From IMG/VR virus record IMGVR_UViG_3300002835_000006: a stretch of DNA of 64,000 bases. One strand, 5' to 3'. This document shows, in pieces, positions 6,698 to 47,599 of this stretch. Origin of the DNA: a virus (taxonomy: Duplodnaviria; Caudoviricetes). Position 1 is the stretch's first letter. Every line of letters begins with the position of its first letter. Position numbers and translations under genes: made by a program. The notes under the pieces were generated by a model. It ran no database searches, was not told where the DNA came from, and saw nothing but the letters and a program-made list of their open reading frames with translations.

Positions 6698-6740
6698 AAT
6701 AAAAATTTTAAACAAAAATAGTTTATTTTATTAAAAAAAC

Positions 6741-6767
6741 AAAGGGGTCATTTATGTTGACCCCTTC
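6741..6767. terminator. intrinsic terminator hairpin
   Basis: aaaggggtca-tttatgt-tgacccctt with a U-tract on the minus strand. Confidence 0.6.
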
Positions 6768-6925
6768 AGATATAGAATGATTTAATACTTGTTTATGGTT
6801 CGGAATTTAATTCGATTTCCAATCACCATGTTCTCATAAATGTTGTCGTTTTCCAAAAGACACATCGTTTAATTCATTTATATAAATAAATATCAAATTT
6901 TGTTATATTTATAAATAAATTTTTT

Positions 6926-7675
6926 ATGAGATTTCTAAATTATTTCCAAGATTATATCACAGAGGCAAGATACTATTCCGATGAGAAATTTAATTGGGTT
7001 GCATCTAATATGGGTAGTTGGATTTTGGATAGTACAATAGATAATCCTGTAAAAATTCAGTCATTACCAATGCTTCAGGAATTTCAAAGTTGGTTGTCGA
7101 CAAATACTACAAAGGCCACAAAATCAAGTGATGATTTAGTTTTAGCCACAGACTATATTGATAGTTTCTTGAATAGTTTGAGTCCAAGAGATGCTCAAAA
7201 TTTTATCAAAACTGCAATGGAAAGATTTCCTATTGTAAAAACCAAAATTGCAAATTATCTAAAAGATGAAATACAAGATAATATTGGTAAAAAAAGAGGT
7301 AGGCCACTAGGTTCAAAGAACAAGCCAAAAATTGACTTAAACGACCCGAGTATAAAGGTTATAAGAAGACTTAAACCCGCACCTCAGGAACCTGTACAAG
7401 ACATTAGTAAAGATTTACCACCCGTAACTCCTCCATCAGTGATTGACCAACCTGAAGTTGAAATCTCAACTCCAAGAAGAGGAAGACCTAAAGTTTTCTC
7501 AGATGAAACAAGCGCAATTGATAGAGCTCGTTTCAAACAAGAAGGTAAAGATTATTGGGAATATCTCGAAGCAAAGAAAAAAATTGTTGATAATAAAATC
7601 AAAGTATTCAACCAACAATTAGTAAAACTTCAATCAAATATTGACAAAAGAAAGAAGTTTTGGGAGATAGAGTAA
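6926..7675 (+). CDS. hypothetical protein with AT-hook motifs
   Basis: KKRGRPLGSKNKPK and PRRGRPK motifs; TATTTATA motif at 6906. Confidence 0.75.
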   Translation: MRFLNYFQDYITEARYYSDEKFNWVASNMGSWILDSTIDNPVKIQSLPMLQEFQSWLSTNTTKATKSSDDLVLATDYIDSFLNSLSPRDAQNFIKTAMERFPIVKTKIANYLKDEIQDNIGKKRGRPLGSKNKPKIDLNDPSIKVIRRLKPAPQEPVQDISKDLPPVTPPSVIDQPEVEISTPRRGRPKVFSDETSAIDRARFKQEGKDYWEYLEAKKKIVDNKIKVFNQQLVKLQSNIDKRKKFWEIE

Positions 7676-7717
7676 TCAAATTTTTCTGATAATTTTAATT
7701 TTTAATTTTTTTTATTA

Positions 7718-7725
7718 TAATTTTG
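7718..7725 (+). promoter_or_regulatory. Bacteroidota-type -7 promoter box (TAnnTTTG) for the first tRNA cluster
   Basis: TAATTTTG ending 8 nt before tRNA-Pro. Confidence 0.55.
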
Positions 7726-7733
7726 TGAGACTT

Positions 7734-7810
<77 letters not shown>

Positions 7811-7811
7811 C

Positions 7812-7883
7812 GTCTTCTTAGCTCAGTGGTAGAGCATCTCGCTGTTAACGAGAGGGTCCATGGTTCGAGACCATGAGAGGACG
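7812..7883 (+). tRNA. tRNA-Asn(GUU)
   Basis: GTCTTCT/AGAGGAC acceptor, loop CTGTTAA, G73; CCA not encoded. Confidence 0.95.
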
Positions 7884-7898
7884 CAAAGGGGATAAAAC

Positions 7899-7938
7899 GT
7901 GCAGTGGCCTCAGGGGTTCTAGACCCCACTGCACTCCA
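7899..7938 (+). ncRNA. tRNA minihelix-like element (acceptor stem + T-arm + U73-CCA, no D or anticodon arm)
   Basis: GTGCAGT-GGCCTCA-GGGG-TTCTAGA-CCCC-ACTGCAC-T-CCA, directly abutting tRNA-Gly. Confidence 0.6.
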
Positions 7939-8011
7939 GCGGAAGTAGCTCATTCGGTAGAGCACGACCTTGCCAAGGTCGGGGTGGCCAGTTCGAGCCT
8001 GGTCTTCCGCT
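7939..8011 (+). tRNA. tRNA-Gly(GCC)
   Basis: GCGGAAG/CTTCCGC acceptor, loop TTGCCAA, U73. Confidence 0.96.
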
Positions 8012-8017
8012 CAACAA

Positions 8018-8090
8018 GCCCGAGTAGCTCAGCAGGTAGAGCAACTGATTTGTAATCAGTAGGTCGCAGGTTCGATTCCTGTCTCTGGCT
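8018..8090 (+). tRNA. tRNA-Thr(UGU)
   Basis: GCCCGAG/CTCTGGC acceptor (one C-U mismatch), loop TTTGTAA, T-loop TTCGATT. Confidence 0.93.
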
Positions 8091-8104
8091 CAAAATTTCT
8101 TGAA

Positions 8105-8458
8105 ATGGCACATCCCAACTTACATGCCAAATCTTCCGCAAAAAAATTTGGTGGTAAACCCGAAGATTACATACATCTACACGAGTGGTTAGATGAAACA
8201 AAAGGTTGGTTTGGTGATTCTCTCCACAGAATGTTCAGACATCATTCTGAAGGAATTTTTGAGATGGAACAACGTTTCGGAACTGAATTCAAGAACAGTG
8301 ATGGTAAAACTGTGTATACAAGGTATGTCGGTGAACAACATGTGAAAGAAGATTGTAATAACTACATACCTTCAGCTAAAGAATGGGTGAATAATCTGAG
8401 TGAAAATAAAAGACCGATTTGGATGATGAAAACTGTAAAACTTGAATTTGAAGATTGA
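8105..8458 (+). CDS. conserved hypothetical protein (DUF6915-like)
   Basis: MAHPNLHAKSSAKKFGGKPEDY..HEWLD..K....HRMFRHH.EG...EQHVKED pattern recognised from memory. Confidence 0.7.
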   Translation: MAHPNLHAKSSAKKFGGKPEDYIHLHEWLDETKGWFGDSLHRMFRHHSEGIFEMEQRFGTEFKNSDGKTVYTRYVGEQHVKEDCNNYIPSAKEWVNNLSENKRPIWMMKTVKLEFED

Positions 8459-9033
8459 ATTATTCTCACAAAAATAAAATCTTATGGTTCACACCGATTC
8501 GTACTGCTTCACGAGCTTGTGTCCCAATTATGGAATATTTTAATTTTGATAGTACAAAATATCACGATGAAAATTTTCCAAAAGACTCGGATGACTATGT
8601 TTTAATAACCAACGTTCACAACCCATATAAAAGATTGGTGTCCATTTTTAAAATGTTTGAGGAACAAAAAAATTTATCAAACGTTTCCTTTCATGATTGG
8701 ATTCATACAAATTTGAAAAATTTAAATAAACACAATCAAAACCCACATCAATTATGGATTTCTAAATTTATCTTATCATTCAAAAAAAAACCTGATTATA
8801 TTGTAAGAGTAGAAAATATTGAAGAAGATTTATTGAAAATAAAATTTATTCAGGAAAATATGAGTAAGGAATTAAAAAAAATATTTTCTGAGAATATAAA
8901 AACAAATCAATACAGAGAAGATAATTTTGATTATTGGAAAAAAGAATACGATGAAAGTCTATCAAATTACATTTTTGATAATTTTAGAAATGATTTTGAA
9001 TTATTTGGATATGATAAGAATTCTTGGAAATAA
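8455..9033 (+). CDS. sulfotransferase family 2-like protein
   Basis: PIRTASR (PAPS loop-like), VHNPYKRLVS, DYIVRVENIEEDL, Y..DFELFGY C-terminus. Confidence 0.65.
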   Translation: MNYSHKNKILWFTPIRTASRACVPIMEYFNFDSTKYHDENFPKDSDDYVLITNVHNPYKRLVSIFKMFEEQKNLSNVSFHDWIHTNLKNLNKHNQNPHQLWISKFILSFKKKPDYIVRVENIEEDLLKIKFIQENMSKELKKIFSENIKTNQYREDNFDYWKKEYDESLSNYIFDNFRNDFELFGYDKNSWK

Positions 9034-9051
9034 TCCAACATATTTATTTTT

Positions 9052-9768
9052 ATGAAAATAGAACAATCTTTACCCACAGTACTATCTCCCGAAGAAAAAA
9101 AATATCTTCGAAGTTATACAAGATACTTGAAAGCCTCAGGTATGAGTGAAGGACTTCTTGAGATTGAATTTGATGATTATGTAATTGATGATATTCATTG
9201 GGAGGAGTTCACCTCTTTTTCTAATAACTACAGAGTAGATATTACTGAAGAGTTACAACAAATCTTTGAAAAAATTTTTGATTTTATACAATCCAAAAAT
9301 CTTATTGAAGAACCTTATGAGGAATTAAATTATAGAAGACTTGAGATTGAAATAGATTGTAGAAATTCAACGATTACTATATCTGATTTTTATACCTACT
9401 ATGAAACTTCAGAAACCGAAGGTGTTTCTTACGAAGATGATGAACAACTAGACGAACTCTTTGATTCTATTTCAAAGGTTTTTGATGATAATGGCGTCAA
9501 AGATAAAGAATTCACTCTTGATTACAATGGTAGTGGTGACAGTGGTTATATAGAGGATAATTTCAGTAATAATATTCGTGTTCCAGACAAGGTCGAAGAT
9601 TGGTGTTATCGTCAGTTAGAAAATCATTTTGGAGGTTGGGAAATAAATGAAGGTTCTCAGGGTCAGTTTATCTTTGATTCCGATACAAAAACTATAGAGT
9701 TACTTCACACCGCAAATGTTGAAGAGCAAATCAATAAAACAATTTTCGAAGAAAAATTTTCTGAATAA
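9052..9768 (+). CDS. conserved hypothetical protein (C-terminal DUF6878-like domain)
   Basis: YNGSGDSGYIE ... GGWEINEGSQG motif. Confidence 0.65.
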   Translation: MKIEQSLPTVLSPEEKKYLRSYTRYLKASGMSEGLLEIEFDDYVIDDIHWEEFTSFSNNYRVDITEELQQIFEKIFDFIQSKNLIEEPYEELNYRRLEIEIDCRNSTITISDFYTYYETSETEGVSYEDDEQLDELFDSISKVFDDNGVKDKEFTLDYNGSGDSGYIEDNFSNNIRVPDKVEDWCYRQLENHFGGWEINEGSQGQFIFDSDTKTIELLHTANVEEQINKTIFEEKFSE

Positions 9769-9793
9769 AATTTTTTTATTATTTTTGTCTAAT

Positions 9794-9879
9794 ACCTCGG
9801 TGTTGAAATAGGTAGACAAGAGAGACTTAAAATCTCTTGGACAGTAATGTCCGTGCCGGTTCGACTCCGGCCCGAGGTA
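9794..9879 (+). tRNA. tRNA-Leu(UAA)
   Basis: ACCTCGG/CCGAGGT acceptor, loop CTTAAAA, long variable arm, T-loop TTCGACT. Confidence 0.95.
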
Positions 9880-9919
9880 CACTTGACACTTTCAATATTT
9901 TGAATATATTTATAACTGA

Positions 9920-10006
9920 ATGAAAACAATGAACTTCCATATAGAGTTTAGTAGTCAACAAGAGATTTGTTGGAAAACTCCTATGCGTAGTTCGGTAAAC
10001 ATGTAA
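9920..10006 (+). CDS. putative leader peptide MKTMNFHIEFSSQQEICWKTPMRSSVNM
   Basis: ATG at 9920, TAA at 10004, just after TTGACA (9883 region) and TATTTATA (9907); followed by a terminator. Confidence 0.65.
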   Translation: MKTMNFHIEFSSQQEICWKTPMRSSVNM

Positions 10007-10068
10007 ACTCCTGAAGAGTTATATATACAACCTCGGACTACGTAAGTGGTTCGGGGTTTTTTGTTTTT
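9984..10068 (+). promoter_or_regulatory. attenuator: antiterminator (9984-9995 : 10033-10044) versus terminator (10029-10041 : 10046-10058 + U-tract)
   Basis: 12-bp and 13-bp alternative helices share the segment CUCGGACUAC; TTTTGTTTTT follows the terminator stem. Confidence 0.7.
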
Positions 10069-10078
10069 AGGAAGTTTA

Positions 10079-10110
10079 TTTGGTTCTTTGAAATATTGGT
10101 TGTAAATTTG
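10079..10110 (+). promoter_or_regulatory. Bacteroidota-type promoter TTTG-N20-TAAATTTG upstream of tRNA-Glu
   Basis: Matches the -33/-7 consensus TTTG-N19-21-TAnnTTTG. Confidence 0.55.
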
Positions 10111-10118
10111 TAGTTCTT

Positions 10119-10190
10119 GGCCCCGTCGTCTAATGGTTAGGACGCCACCCTTTCACGGTGGAGATTTCGGTTCGACTCCGTGCGGGGCTA
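10119..10190 (+). tRNA. tRNA-Glu(UUC)
   Basis: GGCCCCG/CGGGGCT acceptor, loop CTTTCAC; one U-U mismatch in the T-stem. Confidence 0.93.
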
Positions 10191-10217
10191 CAAAATCTTA
10201 AATTTTAGCAATAATTC

Positions 10218-10290
10218 GGTAATCAAGCTAACTTAGTAGAAGCGTAGGACTGAAAATCCTGAGGAGTTGGAGCGTAACCAACGATTACCA
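10218..10290 (+). tRNA. tRNA-Phe(GAA), atypical T-loop
   Basis: GGTAATC/GATTACC acceptor, loop CTGAAAA, T-arm GTTGG-AGCGTAA-CCAAC. Confidence 0.85.
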
Positions 10291-10306
10291 CAAAAAAACA
10301 AATATT

Positions 10307-11116
10307 ATGAAAAAAACATGTTTAGTGATTTATGTCGGAAATGGATATTCCGAATTTGAACTTTCTCATGATGGTGCATACACCTATTCCACGGATATGA
10401 AAGAAAACTATGAAAATCATCAGGAGAATATTTTCAATCCACTAAGAGAACAAGGTTATGATGTGGAGTTTGCATTATTGACTAACAAACACGATAAGTA
10501 TGCCGAATATTTTCGTTTCTACAATGCCATTTTCTTGGATTACGATGAGGTTAGTCTACATGATGAGGAGGTAATGAAGAATTATTATTTTTGGAGATAC
10601 AATGTTCCTCCAGGTAACTTTCGTAGTGGAGGGAGATTTAAGAAATTGAAAAATAAAATTCCCGAATATGATATCTATGCAATCATCAGAACTGACACCT
10701 TTTTCCTCAAGAGTCTCAATGACCTGACTGTAGACTATGATAAAATGAATTGGTTATGGCCTGAGACAGATTGGCAAATGTTTACTGAATTTAAGGAAGC
10801 ATACCTAAGTGATGGTAAGACAGAATTTTGGCCTTGGCAAAAACATAATCGTGTAAACGGTAATGTTTTCAACATCGTACCAAAAAAGTTTTTCCGTATG
10901 TTTACAAATTATATCTGGATGGAACATGCAGCACTCTACGCGATGTTGAATGAGTTATCACCATTGGTGACCTTAGATGATGTCAACATGATGTTAGGAA
11001 TGGACAAATGTTATTGCACAGATATCAGATATTGTCAAAACCCTGTATATACGTTCAACAAAAAAATCATCAAGAATAGGTCTGATGCAAAACTCGAACA
11101 TTTTGGTAAAAAATAA
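10307..11116 (+). CDS. hypothetical protein (possibly glycosyltransferase-like)
   Basis: 269-aa ORF; YDIYAIIRTD motif is only suggestive. Confidence 0.65.
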   Translation: MKKTCLVIYVGNGYSEFELSHDGAYTYSTDMKENYENHQENIFNPLREQGYDVEFALLTNKHDKYAEYFRFYNAIFLDYDEVSLHDEEVMKNYYFWRYNVPPGNFRSGGRFKKLKNKIPEYDIYAIIRTDTFFLKSLNDLTVDYDKMNWLWPETDWQMFTEFKEAYLSDGKTEFWPWQKHNRVNGNVFNIVPKKFFRMFTNYIWMEHAALYAMLNELSPLVTLDDVNMMLGMDKCYCTDIRYCQNPVYTFNKKIIKNRSDAKLEHFGKK

Positions 11117-11121
11117 AATAT

Positions 11122-11193
11122 GGTCGGTTGGCCGAGTGGCTTAGGTGGAAGTCTGCAAAACTTTCTACACAGGTTCGAATCCTGTACCGACCT
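11122..11193 (+). tRNA. tRNA-Cys(GCA)
   Basis: GGTCGGT/ACCGACC acceptor, loop CTGCAAA, U73. Confidence 0.95.
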
Positions 11194-11199
11194 CGAAAT

Positions 11200-11272
11200 T
11201 GGAATATAGCTCAGTTGGTAGAGTACTACTCTGATACGGTAGTTGTCGGCGGTTCGAGCCCGCCTATTCCAA
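11200..11272 (+). tRNA. tRNA-Ile(GAU)
   Basis: TGGAATA/TATTCCA acceptor, loop CTGATAC. Confidence 0.94.
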
Positions 11273-11285
11273 CAACAATTTTGTT

Positions 11286-11816
11286 ATGAGACGAAAAATC
11301 ATTTTTATTGATGTTGATGGACCCTTGGCTTGGGGAACGTGGGATTTAGGACCTCAAAATTTCAATATCGAATGTGCTAATTCTCGCAAATTCCAAATTC
11401 CTTATCCTTGGGTACGGGAAGATTGTGAGGCATTACAGGAAATTTGTGAGCGAACAAATGCCGATTTAGTCGTCAGTTCAGATTGGAAACAATTCTATTC
11501 TATACGACAACTTAAAGACATTTTTGTCTCATACGGTGTATATGCACCTGTAATCGACCTAACAACTCATCTAAATTTGACTAACAAAATGAGTCCTCAA
11601 CCAGAGAAAGAAAGAGCACTTCAAATTGCTCAATGGGTCAAAGTCAATAAAGTTTCAAATTGGATTGCAATTGACGATATGAATTTATCCAAAGAGTTCA
11701 AATACCTGAAACCAAGAATACCTATGTGGAGACACGTACAGGTCGATGGGGATTGGGGTCACGGTGGCAGACTAAGAGATAAAGTTGAAGAATGTATCAA
11801 AAAGTTGGAAAAATAA
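11286..11816 (+). CDS. HAD-domain protein (RNA-repair 'Swiss Army Knife' HAD-like)
   Basis: IIFIDVDGPL, LVVSSDW, WIAIDD motifs. Confidence 0.8.
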   Translation: MRRKIIFIDVDGPLAWGTWDLGPQNFNIECANSRKFQIPYPWVREDCEALQEICERTNADLVVSSDWKQFYSIRQLKDIFVSYGVYAPVIDLTTHLNLTNKMSPQPEKERALQIAQWVKVNKVSNWIAIDDMNLSKEFKYLKPRIPMWRHVQVDGDWGHGGRLRDKVEECIKKLEK

Positions 11817-11831
11817 TCATATCTTTGTTTT

Positions 11832-12380
11832 ATGAAAATCAATAGAGCGGATTTGTTATGGTTCTTGAGTAACATCCGTAGAAGACATGAAGGAAAAGAA
11901 TTGACTGATGAGAAGTTGGTTGATGAATTTGCCCACTACATGGAGGCGAACCCCCGTTGTATTGATGTGAATGGTGTTAGTAAAAGAGGGAGGTTCAGTT
12001 ATTCAACTGTTGGATACGGTGTATTCAGTTTGATGGGTGAAAAGTATAGAATGGGTAGAATTGAGGTTTTCGATAGAGAAGATGAAAGTGGGTATCAAGT
12101 TCATGAGGGAATCTACACTATGCCATTCGAAGTTGTAACTCAATTTGAGGATTTTATCGAATCGATTGAAACTGATTTACCAATCAACATTGAGATTGGT
12201 TCTCATAAATGGTGTGAAGAGGAGTGTGCAAAATCTTTAGGTTTTGAAAACTCCGAAGCAATGAGAGACCCTGAGAACGTGAAAAAGTATCAAAGGATGA
12301 AAAACGATGAATATGCACGTGAACAGGGTTATGAAGATTGGGAAGATTTGTTGAACAAAAGTAAATGGACTAAAAAATAG
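11832..12380 (+). CDS. hypothetical protein
   Basis: 182-aa ORF preceded by TATCTTTG (-7 box). Confidence 0.7.
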   Translation: MKINRADLLWFLSNIRRRHEGKELTDEKLVDEFAHYMEANPRCIDVNGVSKRGRFSYSTVGYGVFSLMGEKYRMGRIEVFDREDESGYQVHEGIYTMPFEVVTQFEDFIESIETDLPINIEIGSHKWCEEECAKSLGFENSEAMRDPENVKKYQRMKNDEYAREQGYEDWEDLLNKSKWTKK

Positions 12381-12384
12381 TCAC

Positions 12385-12457
12385 GCGTGCGTAGCTCAAT
12401 TGGTAGAGTACTAGTCTCCAAAACTAGGTGTTTCAGGTTCGAGTCCTGACGTGCGTG
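12385..12457 (+). tRNA. tRNA-Trp(CCA)
   Basis: GCGTGCG/CGTGCGT acceptor, loop CTCCAAA, G73. Confidence 0.93.
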
Positions 12458-12462
12458 CACAA

Positions 12463-12588
12463 ATAGGTTGATTGGGGAAGGAATATACGTTAACCTGATG
12501 ATGGAGGTGGTATATTCGGAGTTGGAATCATCATAGTAATGCCAATCGTAAAAGGAGTTGTCCACGCGACCATCTTCTCCTTTCCTAT
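12463..12588 (+). ncRNA. unidentified pseudoknotted structured RNA between tRNA-Trp and tRNA-CAU
   Basis: Five perfect helices, two of them crossing (see findings). Confidence 0.6.
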
Positions 12589-12590
12589 AC

Positions 12591-12665
12591 GGACCCTTAG
12601 CTCAGTTGGTTAGCAGCGGCGCGCTCATAACGCGAAGGTCGTAGGTTCAAGTCCTACAGGGTCCA
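12591..12665 (+). tRNA. tRNA with CAU anticodon, probably Ile2 (lysidine-modified, reads AUA)
   Basis: GGACCCT/AGGGTCC acceptor with C4-G69 and C5-G68, loop CTCATAA; overall similar to E. coli ileX; lacks initiator features. Confidence 0.85.
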
Positions 12666-12670
12666 CAAAC

Positions 12671-12741
12671 TGTCGTATGGTGTAACGGTAACACAACAGA
12701 TTTTGATTCTGTTTTTCAAGGTTCGAATCCTTGTGCGACAT
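12671..12741 (+). tRNA. tRNA-Gln(UUG)
   Basis: TGTCGTA/TGCGACA acceptor (U1-A72), loop TTTTGAT. Confidence 0.93.
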
Positions 12742-12746
12742 CACAC

Positions 12747-12820
12747 GGTGGACGTAGCTCAGTTGGAAGAGCCCTAGCTTGTGGCGCTAGTTGTCGTGGG
12801 TTCGAACCCCACCGTTCACA
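12747..12820 (+). tRNA. tRNA-His(GUG) with G-1 and A73
   Basis: G-GTGGACG/CGTTCAC-A, loop TTGTGGC. Confidence 0.92.
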
Positions 12821-12835
12821 CAAATATTTAATGTT

Positions 12836-13126
12836 ATGAATGAAATTGGATTGATAGGTAGTTTGTTATTAACATTCTGTGGTTTACCAGAACTCCTTAG
12901 AACCCTCAAGAATCGAAGATGTGACATTGGTTGGGGTTTTCTCCTTATGTGGTTTTTCGGGGAAATATTCTGTCTATTTTACGGTTTAGATTTGAATGAG
13001 GTTCCATTGTTGATAAATTATTCTTTCAATCTGATAATTGTAGGTACAATGTTATATTTCAAAGTCAGAGGAGAGTTGCCTGAGTGGTTAAAGGAGCAGT
13101 TTGCTAAACTGTGGTCGAGTAATTGA
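12836..13126 (+). CDS. PQ-loop/SemiSWEET-like small membrane protein
   Basis: Three hydrophobic helices, CGLPELLRTLK (PQ-like PE); ATG at 12836; 3' end runs into tRNA-Ser. Confidence 0.7.
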   Translation: MNEIGLIGSLLLTFCGLPELLRTLKNRRCDIGWGFLLMWFFGEIFCLFYGLDLNEVPLLINYSFNLIIVGTMLYFKVRGELPEWLKEQFAKLWSSN

Positions 13127-13154
13127 CCCATTGGTTCGAATCCAATACTCTCCG
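13070..13154 (+). tRNA. tRNA-Ser(GCU)
   Basis: GGAGAGT/ACTCTCC acceptor, loop TTGCTAA, long variable arm, G73. Confidence 0.96.
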
Positions 13155-13236
13155 CAATAACTTGACAGTTTCTAAAGACTTTCATATATTTATAATCTCA
13201 AACGTTATAATAAACATTAACTAAAAAAAAACAAAA

Positions 13237-13425
13237 ATGAAAAAAATTTTTGCAATTGTATCACTTGTGGTTTTGTCTGCATGTGGTGGAAACGGAGCAT
13301 CAACTGAAGTAACAACAACTGATTCTTCAACTGTTGTAGTAGATTCAACTAAAGTAGATTCTACAGCCGTTCCTGTGGAACCAACAAAAGTTGATGAAGC
13401 TCCAAAAGTAGAAGAAGTTAAATAA
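13237..13425 (+). CDS. small lipoprotein
   Basis: MKK + hydrophobic segment + LSAC lipobox; T/S/D/V-rich tail. Confidence 0.8.
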   Translation: MKKIFAIVSLVVLSACGGNGASTEVTTTDSSTVVVDSTKVDSTAVPVEPTKVDEAPKVEEVK

Positions 13426-13442
13426 TAAAATTTCTTCCAAAT

Positions 13443-13470
13443 AAAAAAACCCACGTTTGTGGGTTTTTTT
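13443..13470. terminator. bidirectional intrinsic terminator
   Basis: aaaaaaacccac-gttt-gtgggttttttt. Confidence 0.75.
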
Positions 13471-14146
13471 ATATCTTGTCCTTATATCCAAAGAAATCTT
13501 TAATCCAATTTCCTCCTTTAAAAAAATCTTTTAAGTCCTCAGGTATTCCTGAGTTGACATCAGGTGAATTAGTATTATTCTCTGCTTTTTTTGAAACATC
13601 AGATGACGCCATTACACCACTTGATGTTCCAGCTTCTACATCCCCATCATATGCTTCATCAGTCATATTAGACACGTGAACATGGTCATCATGACCCTCG
13701 AAACCAAATGTCAAAAAAGCTTTCGGGTTACTTTTACCCTCCGAGTTCTTTTTGTAACCCATGTTCAAAAGAGTATTTGTAAATTTCTCAACGACTTCTC
13801 TATTTTTCGGAGCAACAACTACTTTTTTACCATCAGGTAGAATTATAAAATCGATATCCACTGCACCTTGTCTCCAATGTCTACTGACATGACCACTTGC
13901 ACTGAGTTTACGATGTCCTGTTTTCGCCCAATCAATTGTGATTTTGAAATTATTTACTTCAGCTGCTTTTTGTAAATCATCTAAAAGGGCTTTAGGTAAC
14001 TTATCCTTTTTTGTTCTTCCGTGGAAAATTAAATTTGGGTATTTTGATTCACTAGATTCTACATCAATCAAAACCTCATTGATAAAATTTTTGTTGGATA
14101 AAATCTTATCGAAAGTTTGCGATATTTTATGTTCTACTATATTCAC
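13469..14146 (-). CDS. Zn peptidase of the M15/LAS type (putative peptidoglycan peptidase)
   Basis: SRHWRQGAVD (SxHxxGxAxD) and HDDHVH (HxH). Confidence 0.7.
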   Translation of the reverse strand: MNIVEHKISQTFDKILSNKNFINEVLIDVESSESKYPNLIFHGRTKKDKLPKALLDDLQKAAEVNNFKITIDWAKTGHRKLSASGHVSRHWRQGAVDIDFIILPDGKKVVVAPKNREVVEKFTNTLLNMGYKKNSEGKSNPKAFLTFGFEGHDDHVHVSNMTDEAYDGDVEAGTSSGVMASSDVSKKAENNTNSPDVNSGIPEDLKDFFKGGNWIKDFFGYKDKI

Positions 14147-36463: not shown

Positions 36464-38227
36464 ATGACAAAAGAACAACTAATTATTGAATATACAAAGT
36501 GTATGAGGAATACTCCCTATGCACTCAAAGCATATTTACAAACTTACGATAACACCGTATCAAAATATGTCCCTTTAGATTTATTTCCTGACCAAGTAAG
36601 ATTGATTGAAGATTATGATTCGTACAACGAAAACATTGCTCTGAAATATAGACAGGCGGGTGTTTCTACTGTAACTGCCGCTTGGGCATCAAAAAAATTA
36701 GTTTTTGCAAAAAAACAAAAACCTGAAAAAATTCTAATTATTGCCAACAAACTTGACACTTCTGTCGAGATGGCTAACAAAATAAGGTCATTCACTGAAC
36801 AATGGCCAGAATGGGTTGGTATCGGTTTTTCTGCAGAAAAAAACTCCCAAAGACATTTCAAACTTTCGAATGATTGTGAGGTTAAAGCGGTTGCAACATC
36901 CAAGGACGCCTTACGTGGTTACACGCCAACAATATTGATTTTTGACGAAGCTGCGTTCATTGAAGCAGATAATGATTTCTGGTCTGCTTGTATGGCATCT
37001 CTATCAACAGGTGGTAAAGTGATAGTTGTTTCAACCCCTAACGGATATGACCCAATCTATTATGAAATTTATGACCAAGCATTGAGAGGAATGAATGAGT
37101 TTAAAATCTCGGAGATGTATTGGTATAGAGACCCAAGATATACCAAGGATTTGTTCATGGTCAAAACTAATGACCTCGTTCATTTTTTATTGAATAGAGA
37201 AGATTATCCCAAAGACGTTGTAGTTGACCTCTCAATAGATAATCCATATGAGAGAGACCATTCAATAACCACAGATTACATCAATAAGGGTTATAAACCA
37301 TGTTCTGCTTGGTTTGAGGGAATGGTCAAAAAATTGAAATTTGACAGAAGAAAAGTTGCACAAGAATTGGAGTGTAATTTCTTGGGGTCAGGGGACAATG
37401 TTTTTGAATCTGAGTTGATGCAAAATATTGCTAAGAATAGCCTTAGAGAACCTCAAGCTAAATTGATGGGAAGCTCATTGTGGATATTCAAAGAGCCTGA
37501 AAATAATCATAAGTACGTTATGGGGGTGGATGTTTCAAGAGGAGATTCAGAAGATTTCTCATGTATTGAGATTATTGATTTTGACACAAAAGAACAGGTT
37601 TTGGAATACGTCGGTAAAATCCCACCAGATGTACTTGCTGAAATTGCTTATAAGTGGGGTACTATGTATAGAGCCTTTTGTGTGATTGATATAACTGGTG
37701 GGATGGGAATTTCAACTGCCCGTAAAATGCAAGAATTGAATTATGAAGGTGGATTGTATGTTGACAACATAGACCCGAACAAGAAATGGAAGTGGGACCC
37801 TAAAGCAAATGAAAAAATACCTGGTATAAATTTTAATTCTAAAAGGGTTCAAATTATTGCATCGCTTGAGGAAGCGGTGCGACATGATTTCAAAATTTAT
37901 TCTAATCGATTATATAATGAAATGAATACTTTCATCTTCATAAATGGTAGACCTGACCATCAAAAGGGACACCACGATGATTGTATTATGGCTATATCCA
38001 TGGCAATTTATGTTGCAGAAAAATCATTCCAATCGATACAAAAAGTTGTCAATCATACCAAGGCAATGTTGAATTCTTGGACATCGACCGTGAATGAAAA
38101 TAAAAATACATCAGATTATTTCAACCCGATGGTTCCACAGTCTAATCGTAACTCAGGTATGTATCCTACAAATGGTCCAACTAAGGCCGATTATCAAAAA
38201 TATGGATGGTTATTTGGAGCTAAATAA
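36464..38227 (+). CDS. gp17: terminase large subunit (T4 gp17-like)
   Basis: KYRQAGVST (Walker A), LIFDEAAF (Walker B), VSTPNG, QELECNF, GVDVSRG.SEDFS, HDDCIMA. Confidence 0.96.
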   Translation: MTKEQLIIEYTKCMRNTPYALKAYLQTYDNTVSKYVPLDLFPDQVRLIEDYDSYNENIALKYRQAGVSTVTAAWASKKLVFAKKQKPEKILIIANKLDTSVEMANKIRSFTEQWPEWVGIGFSAEKNSQRHFKLSNDCEVKAVATSKDALRGYTPTILIFDEAAFIEADNDFWSACMASLSTGGKVIVVSTPNGYDPIYYEIYDQALRGMNEFKISEMYWYRDPRYTKDLFMVKTNDLVHFLLNREDYPKDVVVDLSIDNPYERDHSITTDYINKGYKPCSAWFEGMVKKLKFDRRKVAQELECNFLGSGDNVFESELMQNIAKNSLREPQAKLMGSSLWIFKEPENNHKYVMGVDVSRGDSEDFSCIEIIDFDTKEQVLEYVGKIPPDVLAEIAYKWGTMYRAFCVIDITGGMGISTARKMQELNYEGGLYVDNIDPNKKWKWDPKANEKIPGINFNSKRVQIIASLEEAVRHDFKIYSNRLYNEMNTFIFINGRPDHQKGHHDDCIMAISMAIYVAEKSFQSIQKVVNHTKAMLNSWTSTVNENKNTSDYFNPMVPQSNRNSGMYPTNGPTKADYQKYGWLFGAK

Positions 38228-38264: not shown

Positions 38265-40094
38265 ATGAGTGAACAGAATTTAACTATTTGGCAGAGGTTA
38301 TCCAAAACCTTTGGACCCAATTCTTTATTAGGTCAGGATTATCCTACATATAAGTTTGATAAAAAAGTATTACTACGTACCACCGACCGAGCTGAATACG
38401 AAAGGGAAAAATTACAAGCACAACAAAGTTTTTATTTAGCAAATCAATGGGCTAAAGTTGAAAACAATTTATATTCTCAAGCCATTTATTATGAACCATC
38501 AAGACTCTCCGCACAATATGATTATGAGTCTATGGAGTATACACCTGAAATTTCTGCGGCGTTGGACATTTATGCTGAGGAATCAACAACTACCAATGAG
38601 GATGGTTTCATATTACAGATTTATTCAGAATCAAAAAGAATCAAATCAGTTTTAGCCGACCTTTTCAACAATACATTGGATATCAACACCAATTTACCAA
38701 TGTGGACAAGAAATACATGTAAGTATGGTGATAACTTTGTTTACCTCAAACTCGACCCAGAAAAGGGAATTGTTGGTTGTCAACAACTACCTACAATCGA
38801 AATTGAGAGAAGAGAAGTTGGTACTTCACAAAAAATTACAGTAGAACCCGATAGACCTGAAGATAGAAAAGCACTTCACTTCGATTGGAAAAATAAAAAC
38901 ATGACTTTTCAGTCTTGGGAAATTGCTCACTTTAGACTGTTGGGTGATGATAGAAGGCTACCATACGGAACTTCAATGCTTGAAAAAGCCAGAAGAATTT
39001 GGAAACAATTATTGTTATCCGAAGATGCGATGTTGATTTATCGTACTTCGAGAGCTCCAGAAAGAAGGATATTCAAGGTATTTGTCGGAAACATGAATGA
39101 TGACGATGTTGAAGCGTATGTACAACGTGTGGCAAACAAATTCAAGAGAGAACAAATTGTTGACAGTAAGACAGGTCAAGTGGATATGAGATTCAATCAG
39201 ATGGCCGTTGACCAAGACTATTTTGTACCTGTACGTGACCCAGCAGCACCTAGTCCAATAGATACCTTGCCTGGTGCACAAAATCTATCAGAAATTGCGG
39301 ATATTGAATATATTCAGAAAAAACTGTTGACAGCTTTAAGAGTACCCAAAGCGTTTTTAGGGTTTGAAGAAGTTGTGGGTGACGGTAAGAATCTTTCTTT
39401 GCAGGATATTAGGTTCGCCAGAACAATAAACAGGATTCAAAAAAGTATGTTACAGGAACTGAATAAAATTGCAATTGTTCATCTGTTTCTTTTAGGTTTT
39501 GAAGATGAACTTGATAATTTTACTTTGGGTCTTACTAATCCATCCACTCAAGCTGATTTACTCAAAATTGATGTCTGGAAAGAAAAAGTTACACTTTATA
39601 AAGACATGGTATCTGACCCTGGAGGTGGAATTTCAGCAACCTCTACAACATGGGCTAAAAAACATATTTTTGGTTGGTCAGACGATGAAGTCAAATTAGA
39701 TTTACAACAACAGAGATTGGAGAGAGCGGTCGGTGAAGAATTGAAAGCCACTCCAACAGTTATTACCAAAACGGGAATATTTGATAATCTAGATAAATTA
39801 TACGGGTCAACAACGGGAGGAACACCAACTCAAACTGCAACCGAAACTGGAGGTGGATTTGAACCTTCAGGAATAGAACCAATGTCACCGCCATCACCAC
39901 CCACACCTGAAGAACCTGCTGGTGGGGAAGCACCACCCGAAGGAGGCGAAGTTACACCGGAATCTAAATCTAAAGAACTGAACATTTTAGTTGAAAATAA
40001 CTTTATTGAAGGTTCAACCAACATAGATTTGTCACATGGGCAAAATTCTTTGGGTGAAATTACCAAGCAGTTAGACAAGTTACTAAATTCCTAA
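38265..40094 (+). CDS. gp20: portal vertex protein (T4 gp20-like)
   Basis: PEISAALDIYAEE, EDAMLIYRTSRAPERRIF, EDYF-like DQDYFVP, IDTLPGAQNL, LRVPKAFL, FARTINRIQ. Confidence 0.95.
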   Translation: MSEQNLTIWQRLSKTFGPNSLLGQDYPTYKFDKKVLLRTTDRAEYEREKLQAQQSFYLANQWAKVENNLYSQAIYYEPSRLSAQYDYESMEYTPEISAALDIYAEESTTTNEDGFILQIYSESKRIKSVLADLFNNTLDINTNLPMWTRNTCKYGDNFVYLKLDPEKGIVGCQQLPTIEIERREVGTSQKITVEPDRPEDRKALHFDWKNKNMTFQSWEIAHFRLLGDDRRLPYGTSMLEKARRIWKQLLLSEDAMLIYRTSRAPERRIFKVFVGNMNDDDVEAYVQRVANKFKREQIVDSKTGQVDMRFNQMAVDQDYFVPVRDPAAPSPIDTLPGAQNLSEIADIEYIQKKLLTALRVPKAFLGFEEVVGDGKNLSLQDIRFARTINRIQKSMLQELNKIAIVHLFLLGFEDELDNFTLGLTNPSTQADLLKIDVWKEKVTLYKDMVSDPGGGISATSTTWAKKHIFGWSDDEVKLDLQQQRLERAVGEELKATPTVITKTGIFDNLDKLYGSTTGGTPTQTATETGGGFEPSGIEPMSPPSPPTPEEPAGGEAPPEGGEVTPESKSKELNILVENNFIEGSTNIDLSHGQNSLGEITKQLDKLLNS

Positions 40095-45757: not shown

Positions 45758-47599
45758 ATGGGAGCATTATTAGAATCAGGTCTTGTTGGTAACATCGGGT
45801 TAAAACACCTTAAAGTTATCAAAGAAGACACAATCGGAAAATGGGACAAATTAGGATTCTTAGAGGGTCTTAAAGGTCACATGAGAGAAAATATCGCGCA
45901 GCTTTATGAAAACCAAGCTAGCTATTTGATAAACGAAGCTTCAACGACATCTGACACAGGTGCGTTTGAAACTGTGGTTTTCCCTATCGTTAGAAGAGTA
46001 TTCTCTAAATTGTTAGCTAACGATATCGTATCTGTACAGGCTATGAACTTACCAATCGGTAAATTGTTCTATTTTGTACCTAACATTCAGAGCTATAGTG
46101 ATACTCCATCACTTCCAGGTCTTTCAGAGCACTACGCACCTTATGGAGCACCAGATGGTCCTGATTCACCAAATAAAGGTTATAACTATAACGATGGAAG
46201 AGACCTTTATGATAGATTTTATGAAGGTAACGAACCAGCATTAGACCCACCAGGTTTATTTGACTACTCAAAAGGTTCATTCTCAACAATTACATCGGCA
46301 GTTACATCAGTTGTTACAGCAGCTTGGGATAATACTACGTTGAATTTAGTACCAAGCAATTACAACACAACTACTCCGATTGTAGGTAACTCAGCAAGTA
46401 ACTTCAGAAAAGTTCTTGTAATCATGAGTGGATTCGCACAAGCAGCTGCTGGTAAATTGATTGGTCCTGATGGTAACCCAATTGACACAGAAGCATTCTT
46501 GTCTGATTTGACAATTTATGGTGTTTCTAGCAACACAACTACTGCGGGTGGTGGTCCTTATCTTTTCAGAGTAGTAACTCAAAGATATGGTAAGGGTATC
46601 GTAGAATACGGTGACAACAATGCTCGGTTAGACTTCCCGAATTCTTTAACTGATGGTGGTCAGTATGATAACATTTGTGATGTGAATGGCAACATTTACT
46701 TGGAAATCGACCTTCAAGTTCCAACATGTATTACTTGTGGACCATCTATGGACGGTTATACAGGTTCAACATTCTCATCTAACACTGATTCGAACAACGC
46801 ATTTACAGCAACTTATAGACTCTATAAGAACTTAGAATTCGAAGATAAGATTGGTGAGGTTTCATTCGACCTTATGTCAGTGACAGTTTCTGTAACTGAA
46901 AGAAAATTGAGAGCTCAATGGTCACCTGAAATGGCACAAGACGTCGCGGCATTCCACAACATTGACGCTGAAGCTGAATTGACAGCTTTATTGTCAGAGC
47001 AAGTTGCTGCTGAAATCGACAGAGAAATCTTGAGAGACCTCAGAAAAGGTGCGGCTTGGAACTTGAGATGGGATTACAACGGATGGAAGAGATTAGGTAA
47101 CGGTACTGGTGCTGTTTCTTATACTCAAAAAGACTGGAATCAAACTTTGATTACTGCAATCAACCAATTGTCGGCACAAATTCACAAATCTACTTTGAGA
47201 GGTGGTGCTAACTGGATTGTTGTGTCATCTGAGGTTTCTGCAATTTTTGATGATTTGGAATATTTCCACGTATCAAACGCGGCTCCTGAGCAGGACCAAT
47301 ATAACATGGGTATTGAAAGAGTAGGTACTCTCGCTGGTAGATATCAAGTTTACAGAGACCCTTACTTCCCACCAAACCAAGTGTTGATTGGACACAAAGG
47401 AACATCGCTTCTTGACACAGGTTACATCTACGCACCATATGTACCATTACAACTTACTCCAACAATGTATAATCCATTCAACTTCACACCAATCAAAGGT
47501 ATCATGACTAGATATGCTAAGAAAATGGTGAACAACAGATTCTATGGTAGAATCACAGTTGATGGTGTTAGAACATTCGATTTGAAAGAGTTGAGATAA
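45758..47599 (+). CDS. gp23: major capsid protein (T4 gp23-like)
   Basis: FPIVRRVF..L.ANDIVSVQAM..P.G; TERKLRAQWSPEMAQD..AFH.IDAEAEL; YAPYVPL; GIMTRYA. Confidence 0.97.
   Translation: MGALLESGLVGNIGLKHLKVIKEDTIGKWDKLGFLEGLKGHMRENIAQLYENQASYLINEASTTSDTGAFETVVFPIVRRVFSKLLANDIVSVQAMNLPIGKLFYFVPNIQSYSDTPSLPGLSEHYAPYGAPDGPDSPNKGYNYNDGRDLYDRFYEGNEPALDPPGLFDYSKGSFSTITSAVTSVVTAAWDNTTLNLVPSNYNTTTPIVGNSASNFRKVLVIMSGFAQAAAGKLIGPDGNPIDTEAFLSDLTIYGVSSNTTTAGGGPYLFRVVTQRYGKGIVEYGDNNARLDFPNSLTDGGQYDNICDVNGNIYLEIDLQVPTCITCGPSMDGYTGSTFSSNTDSNNAFTATYRLYKNLEFEDKIGEVSFDLMSVTVSVTERKLRAQWSPEMAQDVAAFHNIDAEAELTALLSEQVAAEIDREILRDLRKGAAWNLRWDYNGWKRLGNGTGAVSYTQKDWNQTLITAINQLSAQIHKSTLRGGANWIVVSSEVSAIFDDLEYFHVSNAAPEQDQYNMGIERVGTLAGRYQVYRDPYFPPNQVLIGHKGTSLLDTGYIYAPYVPLQLTPTMYNPFNFTPIKGIMTRYAKKMVNNRFYGRITVDGVRTFDLKELR

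Follow-up and report, generated by a model that had tools for sequence, protein, structure and literature searches.

The attenuators of enterobacterial operons (ilvGMEDA, which responds to Ile, Leu and Val; thr, which responds to Thr and Ile; trpL, hisL, leuL, pheL; and pheM of pheST) share a common plan. A promoter is followed by a short leader open reading frame (ORF) with regulatory codons, by mutually exclusive 1:2, 2:3 and 3:4 helices and by an intrinsic terminator, and the stop codon is placed so that a ribosome finishing the leader blocks the antiterminator. Here we describe a cassette of a similar plan in a 64,000-nt stretch of DNA from an uncultured tailed phage (IMG/VR record IMGVR_UViG_3300002835_000006; this whole stretch is referred to as the window). 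It lies at 9883-10118, directly ahead of an array of nine tRNA genes on the same (plus) strand, and the core of its leader is written in the codons that these tRNAs read. We interpret it as a ribosome-mediated (trp-type) transcription attenuator that reports the speed at which array codons are decoded and lets transcription from its promoter, P1, run on into the tRNA array, a reading to which we assign a probability of roughly 70%.

Like the multivalent enterobacterial leaders, the cassette would sense more than one amino acid, and the spacing from its sensor codons to region 2 (about 11 nt here) is similar to that in trpL. However, it shares no sequence similarity with the enterobacterial leaders, and the genes under its control would be phage tRNA genes and a few small ORFs instead of biosynthetic enzymes or a synthetase. 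Up to nine tRNA species would be sensed, mostly by single codons, and the product would act directly on the sensed quantity, decoding speed. Unlike its enterobacterial counterparts, the mRNA has almost no untranslated leader and no Shine-Dalgarno sequence, and a second promoter, P2, follows the terminator. No Rfam family of any kind matched the element, and the models for the Trp, His, Leu, Thr and Phe leaders and for Bacteroid-trp gave no match overlapping 9883-10118. A Leu_leader match at 13406-13470, which falls on an unrelated terminator, was rejected (25.5 bits, where the gathering score is 50).

The T-box riboswitches of Firmicutes resemble the cassette in that tRNA status selects between terminator and antiterminator upstream of genes for the translation apparatus. 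T-boxes, however, need no translation: the RNA itself binds the uncharged tRNA, by means of a specifier loop and of the T-box sequence. The cassette, by contrast, has a conserved ORF and is predicted to sense through the ribosome. No T-box match was found in Rfam searches at E up to 1 within 7000-14000, nor at the gathering score anywhere in the window. Bacteroid-trp (Rfam) is a predicted Trp leader-peptide attenuator of Bacteroidota, a phylum without Shine-Dalgarno-led initiation. It indicates that leader-peptide attenuation is in use in the presumed host phylum; unlike the cassette, it senses one amino acid and serves a biosynthetic operon.

Phage tRNAs replace or supplement host tRNAs, including species hit by anticodon nucleases, retrons and PARIS (PMC10264068, PMC11555353, PMC12409363). 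Literature searches, which took in parts of these same papers, turned up no sensor or attenuator for phage tRNA transcription, and full-text searches brought up no report of tRNA genes, of phages or of other origin, being controlled by leader-peptide attenuation. The initial annotation of this stretch, made from its letters alone, had likewise known of no attenuator described over a phage tRNA operon. The class of mechanism is textbook; the regulated target and the logic are new.

Results

Anatomy of the cassette and codon content of its leader

Every element that the initial annotation had proposed (P1, leader ORF, terminator, antiterminator and tRNAs) was found again at its place. P1 (9883-9912) begins 3 nt after the last upstream gene, tRNA-Leu(TAA) (9794-9880, plus strand; ARAGORN and Rfam). 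It consists of TTGACA (9883-9888), a 16-nt spacer and TATATT/TATATTTA (9905-9912), where TATATTTA is a variant of the Bacteroidota -7 box TAnnTTTG; it scored 11/12 in a promoter scan whose number of sites was no higher than in shuffled sequence. The leader ORF (9920-10006, 28 codons, stop at 10004-10006) encodes MKTMNFHIEFSSQQEICWKTPMRSSVNM, and the mRNA is nearly leaderless because the leader ATG lies 7 nt past the TATATTTA box.

Codons 6-18 (9935-9973) form a sensor run, F H I E F S S Q Q E I C W. Every one of these 13 codons has its decoder among the nine downstream tRNAs, and none of the nine is left unused (anticodons Glu-TTC, Phe-GAA, Cys-GCA, Ile-GAT, Trp-CCA, CAT, Gln-TTG, His-GTG and Ser-GCT), just as had been noticed before. 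Along its whole length the CAT tRNA shares about 81% identity with E. coli genes annotated as tRNA-Ile, with a median of two places per genome; this is the match pattern expected for ileX and ileY, so that its reading as the ATA decoder Ile2 is reasonable. The initial annotation had also set the leader against the tRNAs encoded upstream of it, remarking that it has no Leu or Gly codons. As a small correction, codons on either side of the sensor run include Thr, Asn and Pro, whose tRNAs lie upstream.

The match is far beyond chance, as a calculation proposed with the initial annotation now makes explicit. The 16 codons read by the nine tRNAs make up 28.7% of the 17,745 codons in the long ORFs of the window, where the longest run of such codons is 7. 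An exact inclusion-exclusion calculation gives a probability of 9e-8 that 13 given codons would all belong to this set and of 5e-10 that they would cover all nine tRNAs as well, or 8e-9 across the 15 possible start positions. The match extends to the choice of codon: in 15 of 17 distinct leaders, the Ser at a conserved sensor position is encoded by AGU, which the Ser-GCU tRNA of the array reads.

The RNA elements overlap the coding sequence and continue past it. A hairpin within the sensor run (9956-9972; CAACAAG, loop AGA, UUUGUUG) overlaps the Gln-Gln and Cys-Trp codons. RNAalifold placed it in 18/18 sequences of the related phages described below, with a variable loop and a stem kept through G-U and G-C changes, and it may serve as a pause hairpin. 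A region 1:2 stem (9931-9949 with 9975-9993) is present in the minimum-energy fold of the window; the segment that would pair with region 2 is not the same in all clades, and the stem is missing from the RNAalifold consensus. The 5' arm of the antiterminator, region 2 (9984-9995), lies inside the 3' end of the leader ORF, whose stop codon is 8 nt past it. Between regions 2 and 3 there is a small conserved hairpin (10001-10026; AACUC, loop CUGAA, GAGUU, plus a UAUAUAUAC tract) in which UCCUGA is invariant. Region 3 (10033-10044) is common to the antiterminator, where it pairs with 9984-9995, and to the intrinsic terminator (10029-10068), which has a 13-pair stem with a GUAA loop (10029-10058) followed by a U-tract. 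Because several of its stem pairs are G-U, the terminator hairpin is specific to the plus strand. P2, a promoter of the host (Bacteroidota) type, spans 10079-10110, with TTTG at 10079-10082, 20 nt, and TAAATTTG at 10103-10110; it ends 8 nt before tRNA-Glu, and we read GTTCTTTGAAA (10084-10094) as its spacer.

In the window the terminator hairpin has a folding energy of -19.5 kcal/mol and the 12-pair antiterminator helix, taken alone, -13.1 kcal/mol. We then simulated the ribosome as a masked footprint in a simple RNA folding model. In the minimum-energy fold of the ribosome-free RNA, region 2 is sequestered in a long hairpin by the 5' portion of the ORF. A ribosome with CAA (9956-9958) in its A site gave a minimum-energy fold that includes the antiterminator, and one at the stop codon allowed the terminator alone.

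Conservation and covariation among related phages

Relatives were drawn from IMG/VR phage contigs of 14.8-321 kb, retrieved with three DNA patterns from the element, and comprised at least 18 distinct variants. The leader is conserved among them, as the initial annotation had expected of a functional one: an ATG-started ORF of 26-32 codons is kept in 18/18, and every variant follows the pattern M-x-T-x-x-x-H-I-x-[FYI]-S-x-Q-Q-E-[ITN]-C-W. The -7 box of P1 is also conserved in all variants, at 7-17 nt from the ATG. Variable positions of the peptide take up chemically unrelated residues (E/S/V/I; S/E/Q/H/K/T; F/Y/Q/R/H), yet these stay within the set of the array. Between two of the relatives (L019 and L021) the ORFs differ by four synonymous and no non-synonymous changes.

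Past the Trp codon the reading frame differs by clade, so that the conserved GTAGT(T/C) is read as Val-Val in 10 variants and as Ser-Ser in 8. The stop codon always comes after region 2, by 0-30 nt across the 18 variants. Two frames over the same nucleotides, with a stop that is always beyond region 2, are the signature of an RNA element that the ribosome must cover and not of a protein tail.

The terminator is paired in 100% of the alignment cells in the 18 variants, with one-sided changes from G-U to G-C or A-U. The antiterminator (9984-9995 with 10033-10044; alignment columns 70-81 with 134-145) is paired in 86% of cells, compared with 27-40% in slid controls in which the partner was moved by 1-3 columns. 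At five of its pairs both partners have changed, as in the replacement of G-C by A-U or of C-G by U-A, and its covariation score was reached in 0/500 shuffles. Two of the covarying pairs involve columns of the terminator loop and the terminator therefore cannot account for them. The compensatory changes that had been anticipated for the helices are thus present in the antiterminator.

A paralogous cassette ahead of another tRNA array

By searching for the terminator arm we found a paralogous cassette in most relatives outside the window's own clade (L013:182-339, L015:3493-3640, L019:177-326 and L023:1480-1632, among others). It stands ahead of the first tRNA array, Pro-Asn-(Asp)-Gly-(Gly)-Thr-(Ala). 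The ORF is kept in its 11 distinct leaders, which include MKQLFVNTNLVFRPTTPNGDGGNLCLDSDTDVG and MKTLNLNTLRPTTPNGGTGRLCLGSEASGW, and their core, PTTPNGD(A/G)G (as in ..RPTTPNGDGGN..), is composed of amino acids of its own array. The antiterminator, GGUUCAG or GAUUCAG with CUGAACC or CUGAAUC, is 94% paired and shows A-U to G-C and G-C to U-A exchanges, and the stop codon lies about 17 nt past region 2. The clade of the window (the window, L001, L004 and L010) has no first cassette, only a TAnnTTTG promoter before tRNA-Pro; it has evidently lost, or never had, a cassette before its Pro-Asn-Gly-Thr array. Before the Leu-Arg-Leu group of tRNAs we found no third cassette, only a promoter of the P2 type.

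In the four single genomes that carry both cassettes, the leader codons sort by array (Fisher p 1e-7 to 9e-3). Over all distinct leaders, the sensors ahead of array 1 contain 168 codons of array 1 and 36 of array 2, and those ahead of array 2 contain 36 of array 1 and 215 of array 2. The 17 distinct array-2 sensors have zero Leu, Gly, Asp or Pro codons. Array-2 leaders also fit their own array better than those of other genomes, with 157 matches against 145 +/- 3.2 in shuffled pairings (P = 0.0005, ignoring relatedness). The co-variation of leader codons with tRNA content that the initial annotation had foreseen is thus visible in this excess, while on the other side several relatives retain codons of tRNAs that they have lost. 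A clean co-variation for Asp was considered and rejected: L015 lacks both the tRNA and the codon, but L029 has the codons without the tRNA and L027 has the tRNA without Asp in the core.

Promoter P2 and an RNA contig

Across all variants but one (L021) P2 keeps TA..TTTG with two variable middle bases and has a fixed position 8-9 nt before the first tRNA. Elsewhere in the window a promoter of this type stands alone before tRNA-Pro (7734) and tRNA-Leu (9794). In L021 (2400-2570) the sequence past the terminator diverges inside P2, tRNA-Glu is absent and the next genes are tRNA-Cys and tRNA-Ile. This junction looks like the endpoint of a recombination or deletion, and the leader would there feed an array without P2.

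One lake metatranscriptome run (X16) yielded a single exact contig of 175 nt, 9961-10135, which takes in the 3' half of the leader, the terminator, P2 and the first part of tRNA-Glu. At full identity the run covers hardly anything more of the 5.7-kb stretch, and the uncovered parts are uninformative. These data are assembled contigs, from which strand, ends and level are not readable. The contig is compatible with read-through and gives a weak hint of it.

The downstream block and its surroundings

The downstream block (10119-13155, plus strand) holds the nine tRNAs listed in the initial annotation and no others, as determined by both ARAGORN and Rfam: Glu (start at 10119), Phe (10218), Cys (11122), Ile(GAT) (11200), Trp (12385), Ile2-like(CAT) (12591), Gln (12671), His (12748) and Ser(GCT) (13070). 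The tRNA-Phe gene (10218-10291) scores 44.7 bits, well below the 57-70 bits of its neighbors. Interspersed on the same strand are ORFs at 10307-11116, 11286-11816, 11832-12380 and 12836-13126. The second of these encodes a 176-aa protein that matches the Pfam family HAD_SAK_2, 'HAD domain in Swiss Army Knife RNA repair proteins' (E 3.8e-19), and its place inside the array suggests a possible link of the array to tRNA or RNA repair. The last is a hydrophobic ORF of 96 aa, whose final 18 codons and stop lie inside the tRNA-Ser(GCT) gene (13070-13155) and for which a Pfam search gave no match.

Directly after tRNA-Ser comes a further unit (13158-13475, plus strand) that opens with a near-copy of P1 (ACTTGACA..ATATATTTATAA; the motif recurs at 13162). 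Behind it come a 62-aa ORF, whose product has a lipoprotein-like signal (MKKIFAIVSLVVLSACGG..), and, near 13445-13470, a strong terminator. Another unit, at 6735-6890 on the minus strand, has a TATTTATA box, a 27-codon ORF, a 10-pair terminator and a TAnnTTTG promoter, and precedes a protein gene. We considered it as a similar attenuator and rejected it, as it has no convincing antiterminator; its best duplex reaches -7.9 kcal/mol, against -16.9 kcal/mol in the tRNA leader.

Between the tRNA arrays lie genes for a DUF6915 protein (8105-8458), a sulfotransferase-like protein (8455-9033) and a DUF6878 protein (9052-9768, plus strand; Pfam match). In this phage group the DUF6878 protein is always found directly before the Leu(-Arg-Leu) tRNAs, its relatives being recognized from the same conserved C-terminal coding sequence only; a search in single-protein mode found no relatives of it among viral contigs. 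In total the window has 15 tRNA genes and one tmRNA (ARAGORN and Rfam). The phage tmRNA (23296-23688, minus strand; RF00023, 91 bits) has an unusually long tag by ARAGORN, GNTFAKMAALGLIAEEAVVKA.

The window belongs to an uncultured tailed phage with genes for a terminase large subunit (36464-38227), a portal (38265-40094) and a major head protein (45758-47599), and its DNA is present in many lake and freshwater metagenomes. Among cultured phages it has no close relative: DNA matches are confined to tRNAs and terminase identity is at most 26-29%, the best named match being Flavobacterium phage immuto, only 26.5% identical. The promoters of the window fit the Bacteroidota consensus, TTTG / TAnnTTTG, and the host presumably belongs to that phylum. 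A search of 185,579 representative prokaryote genomes for the motif CAACAAGARATTTGTTGG gave 45 exact matches; as the terminator follows none of them, all are chance matches and they give no lead to a host or prophage.

Discussion

Conservation of the leader, covariation of the antiterminator, the improbability of the codon run and the second matched cassette together support the attenuator that the initial annotation had proposed. We infer in addition that the leader is translated, that slow decoding causes read-through and that a physiological trigger exists. In such a circuit P1 would start a nearly leaderless mRNA and a ribosome would translate the 28-codon leader. If codons 6-18 were decoded fast, the ribosome would traverse region 2 to the stop at 10004-10006; region 3 would then pair with region 4 and RNA polymerase would terminate at 10058-10068. 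A ribosome slow on any of the sensor codons (Phe, His, Ile-AUA, Glu, Ser-AGU, Gln, Ile-AUU, Cys or Trp) would leave region 2 free. Region 2 would then pair with region 3, no terminator would form, and P1 transcripts would extend across P2 to tRNA-Glu and the remainder of the array, adding to the basal expression that P2 provides. Since the product would relieve the signal, the supply of just these tRNA species would be under negative feedback. Candidate triggers are a host whose own pool is short of these tRNAs, host shut-off and defenses that cleave tRNAs.

Several observations weigh against this proposal. In every variant except L021, tRNA-Glu is separated from the terminator by P2, which upholds the caveat of the initial annotation that a host-type promoter downstream of the terminator could give basal expression. 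As P2 is conserved, and as promoters of its type alone drive other tRNA groups, the array would be independent of read-through and P1 would only add to the basal level. The 175-nt RNA contig could stem from contaminating DNA. Translation of the leader from an ATG this close to the -7 box (7 nt, and 16-17 nt in other clades) is predicted to need leaderless initiation. Whereas hisL and leuL contain runs of their regulatory codons, most sensor codons here are present one or two times, and sensitivity to any single tRNA may therefore be low. In the footprint model, a stall on TGG, the last sensor codon, masks the start of region 2 and favors the terminator. The peptide residues QQ..CW are invariant and coincide with an RNA hairpin, and PTTPNGD is strongly conserved in the paralogous leaders, so that constraint specific to the peptide or the RNA may contribute to conservation. 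Finally, co-variation between leader and array is partial: L001 has no tRNA-Phe, Gln or Ser and its leader still has their codons, tRNA-Gln is absent from L010, whose leader contains three Gln codons, a Tyr codon is present without tRNA-Tyr in four close relatives, and L029 lacks tRNA-Asp and keeps three Asp codons.

In a rival explanation, P1, the small ORF and the terminator would be a gene in their own right, making a peptide of 26-32 residues or a small RNA of about 145 nt, while the array was expressed from P2 only and the terminator did no more than insulate it. The T4 tRNA cluster also encodes small stable RNAs. A promoter placed directly after the terminator in nearly all variants is what one would expect of such an arrangement, as are the strongly conserved peptide motifs QQEICW and PTTPNGD.G, and the minus-strand unit at 6735-6890 has a similar succession of promoter, mini-ORF, terminator and promoter before a protein gene. 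That unit, however, has no antiterminator comparable to the one in the tRNA leader (-7.9 against -16.9 kcal/mol). An independent gene would also leave unexplained why two paralogous peptides are each spelled in the codons of the array that follows, why a covarying helix competes with the terminator, and why the tail of the ORF changes frame while its stop remains just beyond region 2. Substitutions at the variable positions (E/S/V/I; S/E/Q/H/K) are not chemically conservative, yet they remain in the set of the array. We consider this explanation unlikely.

Alternatively, the cassette might be a genuine attenuator that responds to something else, either through an arrest peptide (QQEICW; PTTPNGD.G) that senses a small molecule or factor, or as a gauge of general translation capacity or amino-acid starvation. 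The leaders TnaC, SecM and Erm are cases of ribosome arrest by the nascent peptide. The core of the peptide is indeed unusually conserved for a leader that counts codons, each sensor codon is present only once or twice, and leaders retain codons of tRNAs lost from the array. A different signal does not, however, predict two unrelated peptides that are each made of the amino acids of their own array, nor variable positions confined to the set of that array, and the use of AGU for Ser in 15 of the 17 distinct leaders also counts against it. In our estimation such a signal is improbable. A spurious ORF, placed by accident between an ordinary terminator and a site that resembles a promoter, would be no surprise in AT-rich DNA, where short ORFs and promoter-like hexamers are common and where our promoter scan was no richer than in shuffled sequence. 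The probability of the codon run, the persistence of the ORF in 18 + 11 variants, the covariation of the helices and the second matched cassette effectively refute chance, which is hardly credible as an explanation.

A more specific version of the attenuator would make it a multiplexed damage sensor, in which depletion of any of the nine tRNAs by an anticodon nuclease or other defense would set off a burst of replacement tRNAs and of the embedded HAD protein. A counter-defense trigger of this kind fits recent work on phage tRNAs and tRNA-cleaving immunity (PMC10264068, PMC11555353, PMC12409363) and the presence of the RNA-repair-type HAD_SAK_2 protein in the array. We regard it as a tentative and rather doubtful extension of the general reading; if it were true, different cassettes would report on different subsets of the tRNA pool.

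The purpose and timing of phage tRNAs have been debated for decades, with codon compensation, host shut-off and escape from tRNA-cleaving defenses as the proposed roles. A leader written in the codons of the downstream tRNAs implies that the phage measures how these are decoded and adjusts tRNA synthesis to it. If this is true, attenuation extends from amino-acid supply to tRNA supply, and the leader would define which codons the phage treats as limiting. The cassette is also predicted to be a compact and portable reporter of decoding speed for chosen codons in Bacteroidota, for which few regulatory parts are known.

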